DNA of 64,000 bases from Vicinamibacteria bacterium. Its GTDB lineage: Bacteria; Acidobacteriota; Vicinamibacteria; Marinacidobacterales; Marinacidobacteraceae. How positions within the stretch are numbered: position 1 is the first letter of the stretch; each line of letters opens with the position of its first letter. The notes under the pieces are model-generated. The model was not told the DNA's origin. It saw only the letters and a list, made by a program, of their open reading frames with translations, and ran no database searches. Where the stretch lies: the NCBI GenBank assembly GCA_963668695.2, contig CAXXLQ010000004.1, positions 2,048,001 through 2,112,000 on the forward strand. The letters are read 5' to 3'. The position numbers and the translations under genes are program-made. Below, one piece after another: positions 19,007 to 62,027 of this stretch.

Positions 19007-19788
19007 ACAGTCGGTGGTGGAACCCACGTGAGCGCCGAGGCCGGTGAGGCGCCCGGCTGACAAGGCGCGTGAGGGAGGAATACCGGGTGTATTCCGACCG
19101 AAACGCAACGATGAGCGGCGCGCAGCAGAGCGGTGAACAGCCGGTGGTGGAACCCGGGTGAGCGCCGAGGCCGAGGCCCAGTGGTGGAACCCCGTGAGCG
19201 CCGAGGCGCAGCGACGCGGGCCAGTTCTCCCGGAGGGGGCGAGGCCCAGTTCTCCCGGTGGGGCCAGGGGCCCGGCTGACAAGGCGCGTGAGGGAGGAAT
19301 ACCGGGTGTCTTTCGACCGAAACGCAACGATGAGCGGCGCGCAGCGACGCGGTGAACAGCCGGGGTGGATCGCCGGGGCCGAGCGCCGATGAGCCGGCGA
19401 GAACTGGGCCGCGTGGGTTTCACTACCGGGCGGTTCAGCCGGGATGGATCGCCGGCCGAGCCCCCACCGGGAGAACTGGGCCGCGTGGGTTTCACTACCG
19501 GCTGTTTGGCCGGGATGGATCGCCGGCCGAGCCCCCACCGGGAGAACTGGGCCGCCGGGTTTCACTACCGGCTGTTTGGCCGGGATGGATCGCCGGCCGA
19601 GCCCCCACCGGGAGAACTGGGCCGCGCGGGTTTCATCACAGGCTGTTTGGCCGGGATGGATCGCCGGCCGAGCCCCCACCGGGAGAACTGGGCCGCGCGG
19701 GTTTCATCACAGGCTGTTTGGCCGGGATGGATCGCCGGCCGAGCCCCCACCGGGAGAACTGGGCCGCGTGGGTTTCACCACCGGCTGT
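19007..19788. mobile_element. Family A MITE compound array with about 5 tandem 71-bp internal units
   Basis: TA-acagtcggtgg...ccaccggctgt-TA; tandem units at about 19435-19788. Confidence 0.85.
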
Positions 19789-19852
19789 TAGCAGTCGAAA
19801 GGCCCCCGCCGGGAGGGGCCAACCGCCGCTCCCGCCGGTTACGATCCCGGAT

Positions 19853-32420: not shown

Positions 32421-32687
32421 TCGAAGTGCGGCGAGAGCCGCCCGGAGACCCCGGAGCGGGAGGGGCAGGGGTCGGGGGACCCGACTCCCAGCCGGTTCTG
32501 GCTCGGGCTTCCGAAGTGCGGCGAGAGGCGGACGGAGCCCCCGGAGCGGGAGGGGCAGGGGTCGGGGGACCCGACTCCCAGCCGGTCCTGGCTCGGGTTT
32601 CCGAAGTGCGGCGAGAGGCGGACGGAGCCCCCGGAGCGGGAGGGGTAGGGGTCGGGGGACCCGACTCCTACCCCTCCTGGCTCGGGA
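32421..32687 (+). repeat. 90-bp tandem repeat x3 containing a hairpin
   Basis: Units start at 32421, 32511 and 32601; ggggtcggg-gga-cccgactcc stem. Confidence 0.85.
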
Positions 32688-42791: not shown

Positions 42792-43999
42792 TGAACTGGA
42801 ACACCCGCTTTTCCGACGCCGCCACCCGGGTGGCCGGCGCCGACACCGTCGTCGGGATCCTGAAGCTCGCCGAACAGCCGGGGATCATCTCGCTCGCCGG
42901 CGGCATGCCCGACCGCGGGGTCTTCCAGCTCGAGGAGACCCGGGAGGCGATGGCGCGGGTCCTCAGGGATCACGCGCCGGAAGCGCTGAACTATTCACCG
43001 AACCCGGGGATCACCCCGCTCCGCGAGTTTCTCGCCGAGCGGATGGCCCGCATCGAGGACATCGTCTGCAGCCCGGAGGAGGTTCTCGTTTGCAGTGGTG
43101 GCCAGGAGGGGATCCGCCACTCCTTCAACGCGCTCGCGAATCCCGGTGACCCGGTGCTGGTCGAAGAGCCGACCTACATGGTCGCGCTGCAGGCCTGCCG
43201 CGAGCTCGGTGGGATTCCGACCGGAATCCCGAGCGACGCCGATGGAATCATTCCGGAGGCGCTCGACGAGACCGCGGTCCGCCTCGAGCGCGAGGGCCGT
43301 CCCGCCCGGATCCTCTACGTGGTCCCCACCTTCCAGAACCCGACGGGCCGCACCTGGAGCCTCGCGCGCCGTCGCGCGGTGCTGGCGGTCGCCGAGCGGC
43401 GGGACCTGGTGGTCGTCGAGGACCACGCCTACGGCGAGCTCCGCTACGACGGCGAGTGGCTGCCTTCGCTGAAGTCGCTCGCCCCCGAGCGGGTCATCTT
43501 CATCCACACCTTCTCGAAGATCTTCGGCCCCGGGCTCCGGCTCGGTTGGGTGGTGGCGGACCGAGGTCTCATCCAGCGCCTCGGCCTGCTGAAGCTCGGG
43601 ACCGACCAGTGTTCGGGCGCGCTGGTCCAGCGGCTCGCGCTCGCCTACGGCGAGGCCGGCGCGCTGGACACCCAGGTGGAACGGGCGCGCGGCCTCTACC
43701 GGAGGAAGCGCGACGCCATGCTCGCGGCGCTCGAGGATTTCCCGACGCGGGTCCCCTGGAGCCGTCCCGACGGGGGTTTTTTCCTCTGGGCGGAGATGGA
43801 CTGCGACACCGAGGCGCTGTTGCTGCGCGCCATCGAGCGCCACGGGGTGGCCTTCGTCGCCGGGAGCTGCTTCTTCGCCGACCCGGGCTCGGCGGCGGCC
43901 CGCGCTTCGCTCCGGCTCTCCTTCAGCTACGCCCCGGAGGACCGCATCCCCGAAGCCATCCGCCGCCTCGGCGACGCCGTCCGGGAGAGCGCCGCCTGA
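42791..43999 (+). CDS. PLP-dependent aminotransferase class I (LysN/MocR-like)
   Basis: ISLAGGMP, FQNPTG, EDHAY, TFSKIFGPGLRLGW. Confidence 0.9.
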   Translation: MNWNTRFSDAATRVAGADTVVGILKLAEQPGIISLAGGMPDRGVFQLEETREAMARVLRDHAPEALNYSPNPGITPLREFLAERMARIEDIVCSPEEVLVCSGGQEGIRHSFNALANPGDPVLVEEPTYMVALQACRELGGIPTGIPSDADGIIPEALDETAVRLEREGRPARILYVVPTFQNPTGRTWSLARRRAVLAVAERRDLVVVEDHAYGELRYDGEWLPSLKSLAPERVIFIHTFSKIFGPGLRLGWVVADRGLIQRLGLLKLGTDQCSGALVQRLALAYGEAGALDTQVERARGLYRRKRDAMLAALEDFPTRVPWSRPDGGFFLWAEMDCDTEALLLRAIERHGVAFVAGSCFFADPGSAAARASLRLSFSYAPEDRIPEAIRRLGDAVRESAA

Positions 44000-44062: not shown

Positions 44063-44614
44063 GTGCGCCGCCTCTTTGTCGTCTCCGGCCCCTCGGGAGT
44101 CGGCAAGTCCACGATCCTCCGCAAGCTCGTGGCCCGGGTTCCGGGGCTTTCCTTCGCGATCTCGCACACCACCCGCCCGCAGCGGGCGGGCGAGGTGGAC
44201 GGCCGGGACTACCACTTCGTCACCGCCGAGGAGTTCCAGCGTCTCGTGGACGAAGACGCCTTCGTGGAGTGGGCGTGGGTGCACCTCCACCGCTACGGCA
44301 CGAGCCGGAAGGCGCTCGAAGCGGGCGGGGAGGACGATCTCCTTATAGAAGTAGATGTGCAGGGCGCCGATGCGCTGCGGGTGCAGGTTCCCGACGCCGT
44401 CACCATCTTCATCCAGCCGCCCGTCTTCGAGGATCTCGAAACGCGCCTCACCGGACGGGGCCGCGAATCCGGCCCGGAGGTGGAAAAGCGCCTCCAGACC
44501 GCCACGGCGGAGATGCAGCGCGCGGCGTCTTACGACCACCGGGTCACGAACGACCGCGTGGACGACACCGTCGAGGAGCTGGCCGACCTCGTCCGGAGGG
44601 AACGCCGGCCCTGA
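44063..44614 (+). CDS. gmk: Guanylate kinase
   Basis: SGPSGVGKST, SHTTRPQRAGEVDGRDYHFV, YGTS, DVQGA. Confidence 0.96.
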   Translation: MRRLFVVSGPSGVGKSTILRKLVARVPGLSFAISHTTRPQRAGEVDGRDYHFVTAEEFQRLVDEDAFVEWAWVHLHRYGTSRKALEAGGEDDLLIEVDVQGADALRVQVPDAVTIFIQPPVFEDLETRLTGRGRESGPEVEKRLQTATAEMQRAASYDHRVTNDRVDDTVEELADLVRRERRP

Positions 44615-44757
44615 AACGGGCAGGGTGGCTCGCCGGTCAGGGAACGCCGTCCTCCGGCCGGCGCCGACCGCCGGGAGGCGGTCGAAACCGCGTACCGCTG
44701 TCTCGCGCAGTGGCCCACCGGGAAGGCGCCCGCGCAGCCCCGCCCGGCGGGCGGCGC

Positions 44758-45111
44758 TCAAACCCGCGGACGCGCCAGCCTCAGCAGTGCTCTCCGCTGG
44801 TGTTCCTGCCCGGCTAGGAACACCGCGAGAACGCGGACCAACCGCTCGTCTTCCCGGATCTCGTAGTAGAGGATCGAGCCGTCCCTCGTCAGGTTCCGGA
44901 CTCCAGCAAGCACATCGGCGCACGAGACACCCCGGTAAGGGAAGTCCCCGAGGGACTCCATCGTGTCCTCGATGCCGTGAATCCGATCGGCGGCCCGGTC
45001 CAGCGCTTCCCCCGCACTGTCCCCGAGCGAGCGATAGCTCTTGACCAGAAAGTCGAAGATCGCCTCGAGATCGCGGCCCGCATCCTCGGAGCGCTCAATC
45101 CGGTACGCCAA
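44758..45111 (-). CDS. ParE/RelE-family toxin
   Basis: AGRDLEAIFDF...FPYRG...ILYY...VRVLAVF; overlaps the upstream antitoxin. Confidence 0.85.
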   Translation of the reverse strand: MAYRIERSEDAGRDLEAIFDFLVKSYRSLGDSAGEALDRAADRIHGIEDTMESLGDFPYRGVSCADVLAGVRNLTRDGSILYYEIREDERLVRVLAVFLAGQEHQRRALLRLARPRV

Positions 45112-45370
45112 CGGCGGCCTTCTTCGCGGCGATCATGCGGGCGGTCCGTTCCCGTCCTTCGGCGAGTCCGATGAAGCGGCCGTGTCGGCGCTCCTCCAGA
45201 AGCGCTCGCAGCGCGGCCAATTCGGCTTCGCGCGCCTCGGTGCCTTCCCGCAGCAGGTCCAGGCCGCGCTGCAGCACCGCGCTGAGGCTCGGATAGCTGC
45301 CCTTGGCTACCAGCGAGCGGGCGTAGGAATCCTGAGTGTCAGTCAAGGAAATCGATGTCTTGACGGTCAT
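45095..45370 (-). CDS. ParD-like ribbon-helix-helix antitoxin
   Basis: MTVKTSISLT...GSYPSLSAVLQRGLDLL; GGAGG ribosome-binding site before ATG 45370. Confidence 0.85.
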   Translation of the reverse strand: MTVKTSISLTDTQDSYARSLVAKGSYPSLSAVLQRGLDLLREGTEAREAELAALRALLEERRHGRFIGLAEGRERTARMIAAKKAAVGVPD

Positions 45371-45439
45371 GGATGGCGCCTCCGCAAAAATCATACTACT
45401 CAGTAGCACCCTCGCCCCCGAGCGCGTCATCTTCATCCA

Positions 45440-46889
45440 CTCCACGCTGAAGCCGCCCAGCTCCACGCTGTAGCGGGATCTGCCGGGGCCAGCTCCACGC
45501 TGGAGCCGCCCAGCTCCACGCTGTAGCGGGATCTGCCGGGGCCAGCTCCACGCTGTAGCCGCGGAACTCCACGCTGTAGGGGGATCTGTTGGCCTGAACT
45601 CCACGCTGTAGCCGCGGAACTCCACGCTGGAGGGGGATCTGTTGGCGTGAACTCCACGCTGTAGCCGCGGAACTCCACGCTGGAGGGGGATCTGTTGGCG
45701 TGAACTCCACGCTGTAGCCGCGGAACTCCACGCTGGAGGGGGGTCTGCCGGCGTGAACTCCACGCTGGTAGCCGCGGAACTCCACGCTGTAGCGGGGTCT
45801 GCTGGCGGAACTCCACGCTGGTGCCGCGGAACTCCACGCTGTGGCGGGGTCTGCGCGCTGTAGCCGCTGTAGCGGCGGAACTCCACGCTGTAGCGGGGTC
45901 TGCTGGCGTGAACTCCACGCTGTAGCCGCGGAACTCCACGCTGTAGCGGGATCTGTCGGCGTGAACTCCACGCTGTAGCCGCGGAACTCCACGCTGGAGG
46001 GGGGTCTGCCGGCGTGAACTCCACGCTGTAGCCGCGGAACTCCACGCTGTAGCGGGGTCTGCTGGCGTGAACTCCACGCTGTAGCCGCGGAACTCCACGC
46101 TGTGGCGGGGTCTGCTGCTGGCGGGAACTCCACGCTGAACTCCACGCTGTACTCCACGCTGTGGCGGGGTCTGCGGCGTGAACTCCACGCTGTAGCCGCG
46201 GAACTCCACGCTGTAGGCGGGAACTCTGTAGGCGGGCGGGGCTGCTGGCGGGAACTCCACGCTGTAGGCGCGGAACTCCACGCTGTGGCGGGGTCTGCTG
46301 GCGGGAACTCCACGCTGTAGGCGCGGAACTCCACGCTGGAGCCGCGGTACTCCACGCTCTGGCGGGGCTGGTCTGGCGTGAACTCCACGCTGTAGCCGCG
46401 GAACTCCACGCTGTGGCGGGGTCTGCTGGCGGGAACTCCACGCTGTAGGCGCGGAACTCCACGCTGTGGCGGGATCTGTTGGCGTGAACTCCACGCTGTA
46501 GGCGCGGAACTCCACGCTGTGGCGGGGTCTGCTGGTGGGAACTCCACGCTGGAGGGGGTGGAACTCCACGCTGTGACTCCACGCTGTGGCGGGATCTGCT
46601 GGCGTGAACTCCACGCTCCACGCGCGGAACTCCACGCTGGAGGGGTTCGGCGGATGGGAACTCCACGCTGTAGCCGCGGGACTCCACGGGCGGGGTCTGC
46701 TGGTGGGAACTCCACGCTGGGAGCCGCGAAGCTCCACGCTGGAGGGGTTCGGCGGATGGGAACTCCACGCTGTGGCGGGATCTGTTGGGTGGAACTCCAC
46801 GCTGGGGCCGCGAAGCTCCACGCTGTAGCGGGGTGCGCTGGTGGGGACTCCACGCTGGAGCTCCGCCGGCGGCCGGGAACTCCACGCTG
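45440..46889 (+). repeat. Helically phased direct-repeat array: about 55 x CTCCACGCTG, 21/32-bp spacing, 53-bp higher-order unit
   Basis: Core starts at 45440, 45461, 45493, 45514, 45546, 45567, 45599, 45620, 45652, 45673 ... 46880. Confidence 0.95.
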
Positions 46890-46980
46890 GAGCGCGTTGC
46901 GCTGTCCCTACGCGCGCTTCACGCACGGCAGCCGTACGCGGTCAGCGGTTCTACCGATGTACTCCATTTATACTCACCCC

Positions 46981-47238
46981 ATGAGTACTCGCCTCCAGGT
47001 CCTCATGGACCCCGTGGAACTGGAGAGCTACCGCAAGACCGCCCGGCGCGAAGGCCTCCGGCTCTCGGAGTGGGTGCGGCTGCGCCTGCGCCAGGCGCAG
47101 CGGGACGCGCCGGTACGGAAGGCGGAGAAAAAGCTCCGCGCCATCGCGGTCGCTACTTCCTACTCCTTCCCGACCGCCGACATTGACCGGATGCTCGACG
47201 AGATCGACGCGGGGCGGAATGCGGGGAATGCGGAATGA
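46981..47238 (+). CDS. VapB-type antitoxin (ribbon-helix-helix-like)
   Basis: MSTRLQVLM...ARREGLRLSEWVR...FPTADIDRML; TATACT 6 nt before ATG; ATGA overlap with the PIN gene. Confidence 0.8.
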   Translation: MSTRLQVLMDPVELESYRKTARREGLRLSEWVRLRLRQAQRDAPVRKAEKKLRAIAVATSYSFPTADIDRMLDEIDAGRNAGNAE

Positions 47239-47633
47239 CGTTCGTGGACTCCACTGTCCCGATGTACCTGGTCGGGAGTCCTCATCCGCTGCGGGACGAA
47301 GCGCGCCGGGCCCTGGAGGCCCTCGTGATCGCCGGGGAGAAGCTGGTGACGAGCGCCGAAGTGCTGCAGGAGATCCTCCACCGCTACACGGCCATCCGCC
47401 GCCTGGACGCAATCCACCCCGCTTTCTCCGTCCTGCTGGACCTGGTGGACGAGGTGTTCCCCGTCACCGTGGAGGACGCCCTCCGGGCTCGTGAAGTCCT
47501 GTTCTCGATCCCCTCGGTCTCTTCCCGTCACGCCTTGCACATCGCCGTGATGGACCGGCGCAAGGTGTCCCGCATCCTGTCATTCGATCGCGGTTTCGAC
47601 CGCGCCCCGGGGTTCCGCCGCCTCCCGGCGTAG
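47235..47633 (+). CDS. vapC: VapC PIN-domain toxin
   Basis: FVDSTVPMYLVG, TSAEVLQEILHRY, ILSFDRGFD. Confidence 0.88.
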   Translation: MTFVDSTVPMYLVGSPHPLRDEARRALEALVIAGEKLVTSAEVLQEILHRYTAIRRLDAIHPAFSVLLDLVDEVFPVTVEDALRAREVLFSIPSVSSRHALHIAVMDRRKVSRILSFDRGFDRAPGFRRLPA

Positions 47634-47888
47634 GCACCGCACCGAGGTCCACGAACACCGACCTCCCACCCACTCCGGCAGGGGTAGCGCCGAAGGGCCG
47701 CGACCTTCAGCCCGACTTGTCCACAAGCCGGCTACCGGGTGAGAAGGATTTGCCTGGATCTTCGTCTGTACGCGGTGGAGGACTTCGCCGTGAACGAGAC
47801 GACCGAGCACCCACCGACTCCGGCCTCTTCGCCGCCGGGACGAACGGACCGCTCCTATACTCCATCACGTGCTGAGCAGGGGGGAGCG

Positions 47889-48209
47889 ATGACGAGCCGC
47901 GGAGCGGGACATTTGGCTGGTCGTCCCGAGCGTTCCCGCGAACCGCTGACCCGGGCGGAGCGAATTCTCATCGGCATGTTCGCTGCGCTCCTTGGGAGCG
48001 GCGTGGTCGGGTTCACGGCGATCAACGGGCAGCTCGTCGGCATACAGAGACAGATCGGTGACCTCCGCGCCGAAATGCACCAGGAGATCGGGGGCCTCCG
48101 TGCGGAAATGCACCGCGAGATCCGCGGACTGAGCGTGGAGATCGGCAAGCTGTCGGACCGGGTCGCCCGGGTCGAAACACGGCTCCCGAGCGGCCCGTCC
48201 GGTTCGTAG
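47889..48209 (+). CDS. Small TM-anchored coiled-coil protein with 11-residue repeats
   Basis: TM segment ILIGMFAALLGSGVVGF, then IGDLRAEMHQE repeats and DRVARVE; same architecture as 37510-37845. Confidence 0.75.
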   Translation: MTSRGAGHLAGRPERSREPLTRAERILIGMFAALLGSGVVGFTAINGQLVGIQRQIGDLRAEMHQEIGGLRAEMHREIRGLSVEIGKLSDRVARVETRLPSGPSGS

Positions 48210-48438: not shown

Positions 48439-49590
48439 ATGAACCCAGACGTGCAGCGTCCCTCAACGCGCATATCGCGAGTCGCGATCCAGGGGTTCCG
48501 TTCGCTTCAGGATGTGTGCATCGAAGACCTCCCGGGGGTGACGGTCTTGATCGGCGCGAACGGCTCCGGGAAGTCGAACCTGATCCGCTTCTTCGAGATG
48601 TTGAGCTGGATGTTGAAATCACGGCGACTCGCCGGGTTCGTCGGCATGCATGGCGGAGGCAGCGACCAACTCTTCGGGGGTAGCGAAACCACCCCCGGAA
48701 TGCGGGCCGATCTGCGGATCGAGACGGACCAAGGGTCCAACGACTACCGGTTCGTTCTCGAGTATGCCCAGCCGGACCGTCTCATCTTTACGGAGGAGGC
48801 GTTCCGCTTCAGCCGGCGCGGCGGGCCGACCGAGGCCCCTTGGCAGTTCCTTCCCGTCGGAGACCCCGAGTCCGGAATCGTCGAAGTCGCGAATTCCGCC
48901 AGAGCGGCCAGCGTCAACGTGACGACGGCGCGGACCATCGTCCATCTTCTTCGCGACTGTGCGCCTTACCAGTTCCACAACACTTCGGCCACCTCCTCGC
49001 TCAGAAAGAAGTGGGATGTCCACGACAACGCGTACCTCCGCAGCGACGGGGGGAACCTGGCCGCCGTCCTCCATCGCCTGCGGGACGAGGATCTGCGGCG
49101 GTATGAGTACATCTGCCGCCAGATTGCCCGCGTTCTGCCCGTCTTCGAGGCATTCGACATCGAGGAGGACTACGGGAGGGTCCTTCTTCGCTGGCGCGCC
49201 AGCGACACCGGCCAGACGATTGGCGCCCATCTGACCTCGGACGGCGCCCTCCGCTTCTTTGCGCTGGCGACTCTTCTGAATCTCCCGCCGGAGGCGCTGC
49301 CGGCCGTGATGCTGTTGGACGAACCGGAACTCGGGCTGCATCCGTCGGCGGTGGACCTGGTGGCGCGGATGATTCGAGCGCTGGGCGCGGATCGACAGGT
49401 GATCGTGGCGACGCAGTCACCCCTCCTGGTGGACGCTTTTGAGCTCGATAGCGTGGTTGTCGTCGAGACGGACGGCTCCCGGAGCCTCCTGAAGACTCTG
49501 CCTACCGGGGACCCGGTTTGGCAGGAATGGCTGGAGGAGTACAGCGTCGGACAACTCTGGGAAAAGAACCTGCTCGGCGGACGCCCGTGA
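48439..49590 (+). CDS. ABC-type ATPase (AAA_21-like)
   Basis: IGANGSGKSN, TSDGALRF signature, LLDEPELGLHP, VATQSP, LWEKNLLGGRP. Confidence 0.9.
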   Translation: MNPDVQRPSTRISRVAIQGFRSLQDVCIEDLPGVTVLIGANGSGKSNLIRFFEMLSWMLKSRRLAGFVGMHGGGSDQLFGGSETTPGMRADLRIETDQGSNDYRFVLEYAQPDRLIFTEEAFRFSRRGGPTEAPWQFLPVGDPESGIVEVANSARAASVNVTTARTIVHLLRDCAPYQFHNTSATSSLRKKWDVHDNAYLRSDGGNLAAVLHRLRDEDLRRYEYICRQIARVLPVFEAFDIEEDYGRVLLRWRASDTGQTIGAHLTSDGALRFFALATLLNLPPEALPAVMLLDEPELGLHPSAVDLVARMIRALGADRQVIVATQSPLLVDAFELDSVVVVETDGSRSLLKTLPTGDPVWQEWLEEYSVGQLWEKNLLGGRP

Positions 49591-50244
49591 TTCGCGTGGG
49601 CATCGCCGTCGAGGGCCCTACGGAAGAAGATTTCGTCAAGAAGGTTCTTGCGAACCATCTCGCATCCTTTGGTGTGTGGCCGCATCCGACTCTTCCCGGC
49701 CGCCGCGGCGGGAACATTTCCGTCCAGCGCCTTGCATCCGGCATGCGTGAACTCCTGCGCGGCTTCGACGCCGTGACTTCGCTGGTTGACTACTACGGCT
49801 TCAAGAAAAAGGAGAACAAGACGCCGGACGAGCTGCAATCCATGATCCTTTGCCAGTTGAATTGACCAGTTGAACCGGACGGTCACCCGGCCGGTATCAA
49901 CGGGCCGTGTCTTCCCCTATGTGCAGCGCCACGAGTTCGAGGCGCTGCTCTTTTCCGACGTGGAGCGTTTCCGTTGCATACCGCGCGTTTCCGAGACATG
50001 TCTGGAGGGGCTCGTCGAAGTGCGCGGACAGTTTGCTACCCCCGAGGATATTGACGACGGGTCCGAGACAGCCCCGAGCAAGCGGCTCTTTCAGTGGATC
50101 CCCGGCTACGACAAGCGGGTCCACGGGCCTTTGGTGGCGGAGGAGATCGGCATGGGCCGCATCCGCTCCGAGTGCCCTCGATTTGGGGCCTGGCTGAAGA
50201 GACTCGAATCCTTGCCCGCCGTGCTGCGCCCCGAGACTTCCTGA
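49587..50244 (+). pseudogene. DUF4276-family (TOPRIM-like) protein frameshifted by a 13-bp insertion
   Basis: VEGPTEEDFV, VDYYG, HEFEALLFSD, TAPSKRL, CPRFGAWL split over two frames at ccagttgaa-ttga-ccagttgaa (49853-49874). Confidence 0.85.
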
Positions 50245-59085: not shown

Positions 59086-59713
59086 ACAGCCGGTGGTGGA
59101 ACCCGGGTGAGCGCCGAGGTTGGCCAGTTCTCCCGGTGGGGGCGAGGCCCAGTTCTCCCGGTGGGGCCAGTCCTCCCGGTGGGGGCCCGGCTGACAAGGC
59201 GCGTGAGGGAGGAGCCCCCACCGGGAGAACTGGCCCGGGTGTATTCCGACCGAAGCGCAACGATGAGCGGCGCGAAGCGACGCGGTGAACAGCCGGTGGT
59301 GGAACCCACGTGAGCGCCGAGGCCGGCGAGGCGCCCGGCTGACAAGGCGCGTGAGGGAGGAGCCCCCACCGGGAGAACTGGCCCGGGTGTATTTCGACAG
59401 AAACGCAACGATGAGCGGCGCGAAGCGACGCGGTTCAGCCGGGATGGATCGCCGGCCGAGCCCCCACCGAACTGGGCCGCGTGGGTTTCATCACCGGTTG
59501 TTTGGCCGGGATGGATCGCCGGCCGAGCCCCCACCGGGAGAACTGGGCCGCGTGGGTTTCATCACCGGTTGTTTGGCCGGGATGGATCGCCGGCCGAGCC
59601 CCCACCGGGAGAACTGGGCCGCGTGGGTTTCATCACCGGTTGTTTGGCGGGATGGATCGCCGCTCGAGCCCCCACCGGGAGAACTGGGCCGCGTGGGTTT
59701 CACCACAGGCTGT
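59086..59713. mobile_element. Family A MITE compound array with tandem 71-bp units
   Basis: acagccggtgg...ccacaggctgt-TA. Confidence 0.8.
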
Positions 59714-59729
59714 TAAGTCGAGGCCCCTT

Positions 59730-61451: not shown

Positions 61452-62025
61452 ACAGCCGGTGGTGGAACCCGGGTGAGCGCCGAGGCCGGGGAGGCCCAGT
61501 TCTCCCGGTGGGGCCAGTTCTCCCGGTGGGGGCCCGGCTGACAAGGCGCGTGAGGGAGGAGCCCCCACCGGGAGAACTGGCCCGGGTGTATTCCGACCGA
61601 GACGCAACGATGAGCGGCGCGCAGCGATGCGGTTCAGCCGGGATGGATCGCCGGCCGAGCCCCCACCGGGAGAACTGGGCCGCGTGGGTTTCACTGCCGG
61701 CTGTCTGGCCGGGATGGATCGCCGGCCGAACTGGGCCGCGTGGGTTTCACTACCGGCTGTTTGGCCGGGATGGATCGCCGGCCGAGCCCCCACCGGGAGA
61801 ACTGGGCCGCGTGGGTTTCACTGCCGGCTGTTTGGCCGGGATGGATCGCCGGCCGAGCCCCCACCGGGAGAACTGGGCCGCGTGGGTTTCACTACCGGCT
61901 GTTTGGCCGGGATGGATCGCCGGCCGAGCCCCCACCGGGAGAACTGGGCCGCGTGGGTTTCACTACCGGTTGTTTGGCGGGATGGATCGCCGCTCGAACG
62001 CCGCGTGGGTTTCGCCACAGGCTGT
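61452..62025. mobile_element. Family A MITE compound array
   Basis: TA-acagccggtgg...ccacaggctgt-TA; about 5 tandem 71-bp units. Confidence 0.85.
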
Positions 62026-62027
62026 TA

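Follow-up and report, generated by a model that had tools for sequence, protein, structure and literature searches.

In the chromosome of a sponge-associated Vicinamibacteria bacterium, a 1.45-kb array of short direct repeats lies between two divergent toxin-antitoxin operons, which raises the question of whether array and operons constitute one system or whether the array belongs to something of wider occurrence. We addressed this question in the 64-kb stretch that contains the array (64,000 nt, positions 2,048,001 to 2,112,000 of contig CAXXLQ010000004.1; hereafter, the window, in whose coordinates the array spans 45440-46889), in the genome from which the window was taken (G000; 4.1 Mb in 4 contigs, completeness 91.7%, contamination 9.3%), and in related genomes. 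The results demonstrated that the array is part of a dispersed, fast-resizing family, that this family belongs to a superfamily peculiar to a subclade of the genus, and that the array has no specific tie to the toxin-antitoxin genes. On the nature of the repeat we are more guarded: we lean, by a little, towards one locus of a genus-restricted, non-coding, multi-locus minisatellite, with a near-invariant core that is kept by a trans-acting factor.

The array and its family

The feature that raises the question is the following:
45440..46889, + strand: family-1 minisatellite array, defined by repeat finding, core count and alignment of units

The core sequence CTCCACGCTG occurs in 52 exact copies, all on the + strand, the first starting at 45440 and the last ending at 46889; an exact search of the 64 kb found it nowhere outside these limits. 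The chance expectation is 0.14 copies, and none of 100 shuffles reached 52. Allowing up to two mismatches raised the number of cores to 55 (52 exact, two with one mismatch and one with two), which reproduces the count of about 55 same-orientation cores, about 52 of them exact, given by a previous, sequence-only reading of the window. Tandem Repeats Finder (TRF) reported a period of 53 bp with 21.6 copies and 83% matches, and this higher-order unit consists of a 21-bp and a 32-bp sub-unit, with two cores per unit. Cores 1-13 follow a strict 21/32 alternation, after which an interval of 22 bp is followed by one of 31 bp, as had been described; an interval of 28 bp that had been claimed as well was not seen. 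Among the 54 core intervals, 21 bp occurs 20 times and 32 bp 18 times, and the remainder measure 12, 12, 13, 19, 22 (three times), 30, 31 (four times), 33, 35, 49 and 51 bp. The 5' two-thirds of the array are regular and the 3' third is visibly degenerate.

On the + strand, translation would be stopped by TAG and TGA in each unit; on the - strand, three frames are open merely because the complement of the unit lacks stop codons. The 53-bp period shifts the frame with each unit, and each core falls in all three frames in turn; thus, the array is non-coding, and a minus-strand protein-coding reading was ruled out on the same ground. Both junctions between the array and unique DNA were present in contigs of the DNA runs X1, X4 and X8, which come from three studies, and are therefore real. 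No contig of these runs crosses the array, and 1.45 kb is its length as assembled.

Exact cores number 251 genome-wide, and 238 of them fall into seven clusters with the same 21/32 spacing on the chromosome contig C4:
A1: C4 122071-123458, + strand, 52 cores
A2: C4 424035-424711, - strand, 25 cores
A3 (the window array): C4 2093440-2094889, + strand, 52 cores
A4: C4 2131801-2131863, + strand, 2 exact cores, 6 with mismatches
A5: C4 2741077-2741576, - strand, 14 cores
A6: C4 3276755-3278097, - strand, 50 cores
A7: C4 3896066-3897220, + strand, 43 cores

A1 and A7 lie in a duplicated segment (3-kb flanks 99.1-99.6% identical), so that six of the seven loci are independent. Between these two arrays there are 28 mismatches and 18 gap runs (among them runs of 11, 13, 21, 22 and 107 nt), although their flanks differ by less than 1%. 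The duplicated segment measures ~75 kb and occurs at about 50-127 kb and about 3824-3901 kb of C4, and parts of C1 and C3 also duplicate C4 (identical 588-bp arrays); the C4 repeat and the C1/C3 overlaps represent either real duplication or co-assembled strain variants.

The 12-mer of the family was sought in 60 relatives, a tally that includes the unpublished G036 (one single hit), on which none of our claims depends. Clusters were found only in G004 (32 copies), a metagenome-assembled genome (MAG; OZ252286.1) of a Candidatus Marinacidobacterium sp. (Acidobacteriota, Vicinamibacteria), and in G001 (a cluster of 3 plus one more copy), where a second family-1-like array has GACTCCACGCTG in place of the 12-mer. 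Both represent other species of the genus to which G000 belongs, Candidatus Marinacidobacterium. Three arrays of G004 are syntenic with A2, A3 and A5, and their core numbers differ from those of G000: 25 in G000 versus 11 in G004 at A2, 52 versus 10 at A3, and 14 versus 16 at A5. The A3 locus carries no array in G008, G010 and G014, three complete congeners. In G039, which belongs to another family of the same order, the 12-mer AACTCCACGCTG occurs 30 times, all as dispersed single copies and without an array, presumably inside some other dispersed repeat or insertion sequence (IS). An exact double-core 33-mer had no match in viral contigs; its matches elsewhere (one metagenome contig and one archaeal-labelled genome contig) were rejected as unrelated local duplications.

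The borders of the array are also variable. Between the upstream region of the neighbouring parD gene and the first core, window positions 45411..45440 (+) hold a ~30-nt copy of an internal piece of a class I/II aminotransferase gene, the source copy of which lies near 43487, 2 kb upstream of the array. The fragment measures 58 nt in G004 and 30 nt in G000, and the fragment-array junction differs between the two genomes, with a microhomology of TCCAC in G000 and of GCTG in G004, which indicates that the array border moves by illegitimate events. We proposed that the arrays would resize by replication slippage or unequal recombination, that their borders would shift at microhomologies, and that illegitimate recombination would seed new loci. 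The 5' flanks of the seven arrays are unrelated, and the 3' flanks carry an IS end in four arrays and a repetitive extragenic palindromic (REP)-like element in two. The 3' flank of the window array (46890..46950, +) is related to that of A4 (78% over 60 nt), and on our own reading it appears to resemble a dispersed REP-like element of the genus, not an IS end. Copies of REP-like elements, together with 71-bp and 90-bp tandem families, also occur elsewhere in the window (44617-44702, 19394-19789, 32422-32686, 59438-59714 and 61637-62026); throughout the genome and the genus, dozens of loci carry them.

Family 1 is one of several. A TRF census revealed numerous long, non-coding arrays whose period is 30-33 bp or 2x32 bp and which form a superfamily of 21 loci that total 23.9 kb, or 0.61% of C4. 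Read in one orientation, the units of four families consist of a core and then a linker:
Family 1: core AACTCCACGCTG, linker TAGCGGGATCTGCTGGCGGG
Family 2: core GCATGCGTC, linker TATTTCGGGGTCGGTTGACCCGG
Family 3: core AACATGTCGCAC, linker TAGCGGGATCTGCCGGGGGG
Family 4: core AACTGGGTGCGA, linker TATCCGGGTCGGCGGGCCGG

The families have a common GC-rich linker scaffold (TAGCGGGRTCKGC..GG..) and differ in their 9-12-bp cores, and more families are present in G004 (G004x) and G014 (G014x). Same-strand consensus similarity was matched by none of 400 shuffles for the pairs family 1-family 3, family 1-G004x, family 3-G004x, family 4-G004x, family 4-G014x and G004x-G014x, and reached p=0.007 for family 2-G004x; for the remaining pairs it was not significant in the 400-shuffle test. 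Aligned against one another, the families resemble each other in the linker and differ in the core, which inverts the pattern found within a family. Among 16 genomes of the genus, family-3 arrays occur in G000, G001 and G004, with one more hit in G009. The 21-bp sub-unit of family 1 corresponds to the 32-bp unit minus 11 bp. Families also abut, as do families 2 and 3 at 975840-979026 and families 2 and 4 at 1173358-1174469. A probe for the scaffold found no site in 400 other Acidobacteriota genomes; it found just 8 sites in G000 itself and was hence too strict.

Apart from family 1, C4 holds at least five families of long non-coding arrays (for example, at 975840-979026, 2553692-2555870, 574310-576045, 3551688-3552683, 1173358-1174469, 2329596-2330693 and 711375-711775) and a 12-mer array of 33 copies; the longest array measures 2.9 kb. 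Several of the further C4 families have the linker scaffold of A3, and some abut as compound arrays. A literature search, mainly at title level, that covered minisatellites of prokaryotes, IS targeting, satellite-like arrays and the symbionts of sponges found no description of such arrays, and no paper that carries the genus name.

Conservation of the core and helical phase

The array-wide alignments showed a core that stands out from its linkers. In the 32-bp units (n=96, 70 distinct), positions 3-11 are conserved at 99-100%, versus 54-99% in the linker, and in the 21-bp units (n=96, 26 distinct), positions 4-10 are conserved at 100%. Variants that have spread, counted as array-by-allele states, number 0.7-0.8 per core position versus 4.1-6.2 elsewhere. 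When 10 arrays were collapsed to their majority units, one extra state remained in 20 core positions versus 15 in the 33 others (Poisson estimate, p~0.02). Thus, with each array counted once, the core is better conserved than the linker, modestly, and the claim that it would be so even after correction for duplication history was borne out to that degree. Core mutations arise without spreading, each array has linker variants of its own that became fixed but not core variants, and cores diverge more than linkers between families, a combination that would fit a constrained specificity site.

We proposed that the core ACTCCACGCT is probably the site of a DNA-binding factor that acts in trans, is sequence-specific and has its gene elsewhere in the genome; recognition by this factor would keep the core near-invariant. 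The putative factor would either drive the amplification of the arrays or use them as a multi-site platform; a protein-binding platform is plausible. In addition, the 32-bp unit (three turns) and its 21-bp derivative (minus one 11-bp turn) would keep the sites on about the same face of the helix. The intervals of 21, 32 and 53 bp equal 2, 3 and 5 turns of a 10.6-bp helix, and the phase resultant peaked at 10.6 bp per turn in five of six arrays (R 0.53-0.79) and at 10.5 in A7. The peak at 10.6 bp follows from the fifth harmonic of 53 bp together with a ratio of 21/53 near 2/5, and the phasing is compatible with a one-face arrangement of neighbouring sites. Of the helical phasing claimed in the sequence-only reading, the match of 21, 32 and 53 bp to whole turns was supported, and the claim is weakened by the limited phase coherence of A3 described below.

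A number of observations weigh against a factor that holds core and phase. Phase is not strictly kept in A3, where R is 0.56 and many odd spacings are uncompensated, and on a 10.5-bp helix it drifts along the arrays (R 0.17-0.53). The 21/32 split arose once and was then amplified, which makes it one observation, not 50, and the 32-bp period is common to the families by descent, which leaves few independent observations of phase. As to conservation, the units were chosen by their core, with 2 or 3 mismatches as the limit, a selection that favours the core, and about four intervals of 46-53 bp conceal degenerate cores. At the level of array consensus, 15 of the 22 non-core positions of the 32-bp unit are constant as well, and the variation of the linker is concentrated at positions 13, 14, 20, 25, 31 and 32, so that the advantage of the core depends on a few hot positions. 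Singleton variants, which represent the most recent mutations, number 8 in 20 core positions versus 21 in the 33 others and are not significantly rarer in the core. The identical consensus core of G000 and G004 is weak evidence at a flank identity of about 91-96%, and the degenerate units at the array edges are expected from homogenisation alone. Finally, neither a core-binding protein nor a gene that accompanies the arrays was identified; when the open reading frames (ORFs) up to 4 kb from 20 array loci were compared by all-against-all BLAST, no ORF family occurred at more than three loci.

Much of this would suit a neutral or selfish satellite, a young family with one founder that occupies tolerant intergenic hotspots and carries along old or exchanged linker polymorphisms. 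Such a satellite would leave singletons about as frequent in the core as elsewhere and most linker positions constant at the array level, as observed, and it would accommodate hybrid junctions: at A2, a family-1 core runs directly into a family-2 linker, and the family-4 core was found with three linker types. The setting of the arrays in variable islets beside IS, REP-like elements and defence genes, the fast change in copy number, the degenerate edges and the lack of a replication-orientation bias (4 leading, 3 lagging) agree with it as well, and the core-constraint pattern could in part be mimicked if the family were young and had imported its linker variants. It accounts less readily for the nine consecutive positions that are invariant in both sub-units across 10 arrays and three species, where the sole core variant to become fixed is G12C in A5, or for family 3, in which the pattern of constant core and variable linker known from family 1 is repeated in G000, G001 and G004. 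Nor would uniform neutral drift predict that cores diverge more than linkers between families. We consider a neutral satellite possible but doubtful, and retained the minisatellite with a core kept in trans as the preferred reading.

Neighbouring genes, insertion sequences and transcription

The annotated genes that flank the array in the window are as follows:
44758..45111, - strand: ParE-family toxin gene (ParE match)
45095..45370, - strand: ParD-family antitoxin gene (ParD_antitoxin match), pointing away from the array, single-copy in the genome
46981..47238, + strand: putative antitoxin gene (85 aa) upstream of the PIN gene, assigned by position only
47235..47633, + strand: PIN-domain (VapC-like) toxin gene (PIN domain match)
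48439..50244, + strand: AAA_21 ATPase and DUF4276 genes, candidate defence pair HEC-01A/HEC-01B (PADLOC match)

HEC-01B of the window is split into two ORFs (49518-49865 and 49870-50244) and may be broken by this split; the layout of the pair is intact in G010. A 156-aa coiled-coil ORF at 47739-48209 has no family match and four paralogues, of which one (C4:2129591-2130001) is 1.8 kb away from the small array A4. Otherwise, the window consists of ordinary chromosome, with IleRS, gmk, CoaBC, RecA, FtsK, PurA, Der and HU, and the absence of rep, parA and cas genes noted earlier was confirmed: a scan of 40 ORFs of the window detected no rep, parA, parM or cas family.

The sequence-only reading had seen an antitoxin of the ribbon-helix-helix (RHH) type on either side of the array and had tied the array to them. 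The gene at 45095-45370 is indeed of the ParD family. The 85-aa gene at 46981-47238 overlaps the PIN gene by 4 nt, an antitoxin-like placement, but its product had no match in Pfam, NCBIfam or PDB sequences and its RHH fold is unconfirmed; the AlphaFold single-sequence model was of low confidence (mean predicted local distance difference test (pLDDT) score 61). If the array were a binding platform (a centromere-like site, anchor or titration sink) for an adjacent antitoxin, and formed one system with the divergent operons, its place between them would be explained, as would the start of the ParD-family RHH gene only 70 bp away. The region upstream of the vapB-like gene holds TACTCCA and TACTCAC, sharing ACTCCA with the core, a weak point for a 6-mer in 90 nt, and RHH proteins such as ParR, omega and ParG bind tandem direct repeats.

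The distribution of the genes, however, does not follow that of the arrays. Within the flanks examined (Pfam on 22 flanking ORFs of the other six loci), no toxin-antitoxin gene lies beside the six other arrays, where we found a sortilin/BNR protein, a GT2 glycosyltransferase and a DUF4143 ATPase (A1/A7), an S15 peptidase, a DUF4143 ATPase and an HNH protein (A2), an integrase and a subtilase (A4), a tRNA gene and pyruvate kinase (A5), and RmuC and an IS256-family transposase (A6). The DUF4143/AAA_14 ATPase near A1/A7 and A2 was rejected as an array-associated gene, since it has ~15 paralogues of which the others lie away from arrays. In addition, parDE is single-copy in the genome, and the sole vapBC paralogue is a degraded copy located 4.7 kb from an array of another family. 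The gmk-coaBC interval, in which the window array lies, has a different content in each of the genomes compared:
G000: parDE, array, vapBC-like pair, ORF, HEC-01 pair
G004: parDE, array (10 cores), IS256-family element
G008: parD remnant, vapB homologue, other repeats; no array
G010: parD remnant, HEC-01 pair; no array
G014: 82-bp repeats only

Thus, G004 has the array without vapBC, while G008 retains a vapB homologue and a parD remnant, and G010 a parD remnant, without an array in either. No parA, parM or rep was found in the window, and the locus is ~1 Mb from dnaA and parB. We concluded that the gmk-coaBC interval is a variable islet, or hotspot, in which the array is a recent tenant, and that array and toxin-antitoxin genes are both tenants of the islet, not one system. 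The proposed tie to the flanking antitoxins fails on these grounds, and a platform for the adjacent antitoxin is highly improbable; the remark that no described system has this layout is true only because the two do not form one.

A role in replication or segregation was rejected for two candidates. A polar chromosomal motif (Chi-, KOPS- or Ter-like) does not agree with four arrays in the leading and three in the lagging orientation, relative to a GC-skew origin at ~1.08 Mb and terminus at ~3.06 Mb. An origin-proximal centromere does not agree with the position of the array at 2.09 Mb, with dnaA at 1.096 Mb and parB at 1.089 Mb. As to a possible DnaA-box sink, the DnaA-box consensus is TTATCCACA; the core shares just TCCAC with it, and the other families lack even TCCAC. 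A second ParB_N-domain gene (C4:3084073-3084339) was observed close to the GC-skew terminus at ~3.06 Mb.

In A1, A7, A5 and A6, the 3' end of the array is followed by (A)GGACTGTCAGAAATTCCGTGTGTAGG, and sequence of the GGACTGTCAGAAATTCCGTGTGTAGG type is, in G004, the terminal repeat of a 1764-bp IS256-family element with a 407-aa transposase that matches Transposase_mut. The ends of the element read GAGC-CTGTCAG and AGGA-CTGTCAG, and its target duplications measure 8 bp. Copies lie at C4:3275100-3276744 and 3771862-3773523 in G000 and, for example, at C1:2584734-2586497 in G004. The number of IS ends that abut an array of some family was as follows:
G000: 7 of 11
G004: 3-4 of 18
G001: 2 of 3
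G014: 1-2 of 5
G008: 0 of 2

The arrays might, then, be landing pads of the IS256-family element or derivatives of it, such as tandem transposase-binding sites. The share of 7 of 11 ends in G000 was reached although arrays make up 0.61% of the chromosome, and of the 11 cases that could be oriented, 9-10 have, by our own reading, the IS at the 3' (core-to-linker) side, with either IS end facing the array. At A5 and its G004 orthologue, different IS ends at different positions point to independent insertions, and intact duplications (AGCGACCC and CCTCCCGC) show that insertion was simple and took place in the last, degenerate unit. IS elements that prefer dispersed REP repeats are on record, including the IS256-family ISRm5 (5 of 7), in an excerpt of one study (PMC1525189). 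Derivation of the arrays from the IS was ruled out, since its terminal repeat has no significant similarity to any unit (shuffle p 0.15 for family 1; best 0.044, for one family-2 variant, in 12 tests). Most IS copies of G004 lie away from arrays, and A2, A3 and A4 have none. Moreover, direct repeats would flank an IS that lay within an array, and the element would readily be lost, so that survival at the edges only could result without targeting; such loss by recombination could explain the edge position, but not the 3' polarity. Landing pads or IS derivatives are therefore very unlikely as an account of the arrays.

A wider proposal would combine these elements into an as yet undescribed kind of bacterial chromosomal satellite system, in which the 9-12-bp core of each family would be the site of its own co-evolving, trans-acting DNA-binding protein, the proteins would form polar filaments phased at 32 bp (three turns), the 3' ends would be hit by the IS256-family transposase, and the arrays would serve mobile DNA of the variable islets as platforms or 'safe-haven' traps. 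Co-evolution of core and protein would explain why cores are frozen within families and diverge between them. We regard this proposal as speculative and rather unlikely.

A processed repeat RNA was also considered, either a ToxI-like type III antitoxin or a small-RNA array. Type III antitoxins consist of tandem 34-36-nt repeats beside a toxin gene, according to an extract of one report (PMC3401426), and two-unit folds of the minus strand gave z-scores of about -2. The folds of the plus strand were unremarkable (-0.7 and -0.8, within an overall range of -0.7 to -2.1), no promoter-like or terminator-like site was found in the array, and Rfam, run at permissive E-values on 44500-48000, returned only a chance internal ribosome entry site (IRES) match of 17 bits versus a gathering score of 40. 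No match to the ToxN family was found in the genome, a weak point because the control genomes gave none either. Known type III antitoxins are 5-10 times shorter than the arrays, which also occur at loci without a toxin gene. In the contigs of the RNA run X20, a single 219-nt contig (45221-45438, depth 3.7) takes in the 5' part of parD and the 68 nt that precede its start codon, and ends 2 nt before the first core, where DNA contigs continue to 45469; this is one thin run. It shows no depth inside the array, and contigs cannot show absence, so it speaks neither for nor against transcription. A repeat RNA is so improbable that we gave it hardly any weight.

Comparison with known systems

Long non-coding arrays are usually lost from short-read bacterial assemblies, and their biology is almost unknown; here, a long-read genome devotes ~0.6% of its chromosome to related satellite families. 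The interest lies in frozen, family-specific cores on a shared scaffold, in the three-turn period and in the polar association with IS. If the cores are protein sites, the arrays would be a bacterial counterpart of satellite DNA with a binding box and would offer a handle on how repeats, IS and defence or toxin-antitoxin islets organise variable regions. If they are neutral, the arrays would still be a clear example, from an uncultured symbiont, of concerted evolution and of islet turnover driven by repeats, and also a caution not to infer function from adjacency.

Plasmid iterons and centromeres (parC of R1, sopC of F and the omega sites) resemble the arrays in having a short motif in direct repeats (17-22 bp in iterons) at whole turns of the helix, here 21 and 32 bp. 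They are single loci of 3-12 repeats beside rep or par, on the replicon that they serve, whereas we found seven loci on a 3.9-Mb chromosome with up to 55 sites and no rep or par neighbour, away from dnaA and parB; the context is one of housekeeping genes (IleRS, gmk, coaBC, RecA and FtsK). For an RHH-type centromere, the window has no ParA or ParM, ParB is 1 Mb away and the seven loci are spread from 0.12 to 3.90 Mb. The neighbours of the array are ParD/ParE and a PIN pair, with no terminator-like site at the array end, which also separates it from type III toxin-antitoxin loci, in which a terminator stands between the repeats and a ToxN/AbiQ-type endoribonuclease gene just downstream.

Clustered regularly interspaced short palindromic repeats (CRISPR) likewise consist of short, identical repeats at regular intervals, with a terminal repeat that is degenerate. 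The 'spacers' of the present arrays (9 and 20 nt), in contrast, are variants of one consensus (54-99% per position), no cas gene lies in the window, and the genome's CRISPR repeat is different. That CRISPR array (C4:3281361-3283455, repeat GGTCCATCCCCGCGCGTGCGGGGGAAGC, period ~61) is separated from A6 by 3.3 kb, in which RmuC is located. A likeness in working only, with no homology implied, exists to alpha-satellite and its CENP-B box: variable monomers evolve in concert around an invariant motif, in related families that receive transposon insertions. The present arrays differ in lying on a bacterial chromosome, with no known centromere role or binding protein.

REP elements and bacterial interspersed mosaic elements (BIMEs) are, like the arrays, dispersed extragenic repeats that serve as targets of IS, including an IS256-family member in the excerpt cited above (PMC1525189). 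REP elements are palindromic and stand alone or form small mosaic clusters, whereas the units here are direct, non-palindromic (two-unit fold z-scores as given above) and arranged in long head-to-tail arrays. Closer is BrickBuilt, a 23-nt minisatellite borne by a Porphyromonas gingivalis MITE (miniature inverted-repeat transposable element), which is also species-restricted and found at many intergenic loci (19 in ATCC 33277), as an extract of its report describes (PMC4596501). In the same extract, BrickBuilt has a conserved leader and tail with inverted-repeat ends and promoter elements (PMC4596501); the arrays here have neither, and their unrelated 5' flanks and two kinds of 3' flank do not suggest a MITE as carrier.

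The family has the properties of a variable number of tandem repeats (VNTR): a 53-bp head-to-tail, non-coding unit at seven loci, with a copy number that varies between relatives and between A1 and A7 (52 versus 43 cores). It thereby resembles VNTR minisatellites of the mycobacterial interspersed repetitive unit (MIRU) type, which are intergenic, non-coding tandem repeats of ~50 bp at several loci that vary in copy number between relatives. The arrays here are far longer (up to 26 53-bp units, and 2.9 kb in a sister family), do not lie in operon junctions with overlapping stop and start codons, and have two invariant cores per unit and a superfamily with a shared scaffold and exchangeable cores. 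Taken together, the closest known kinds are multi-locus minisatellites of the MIRU type and, as far as the extract of its report describes it, BrickBuilt.

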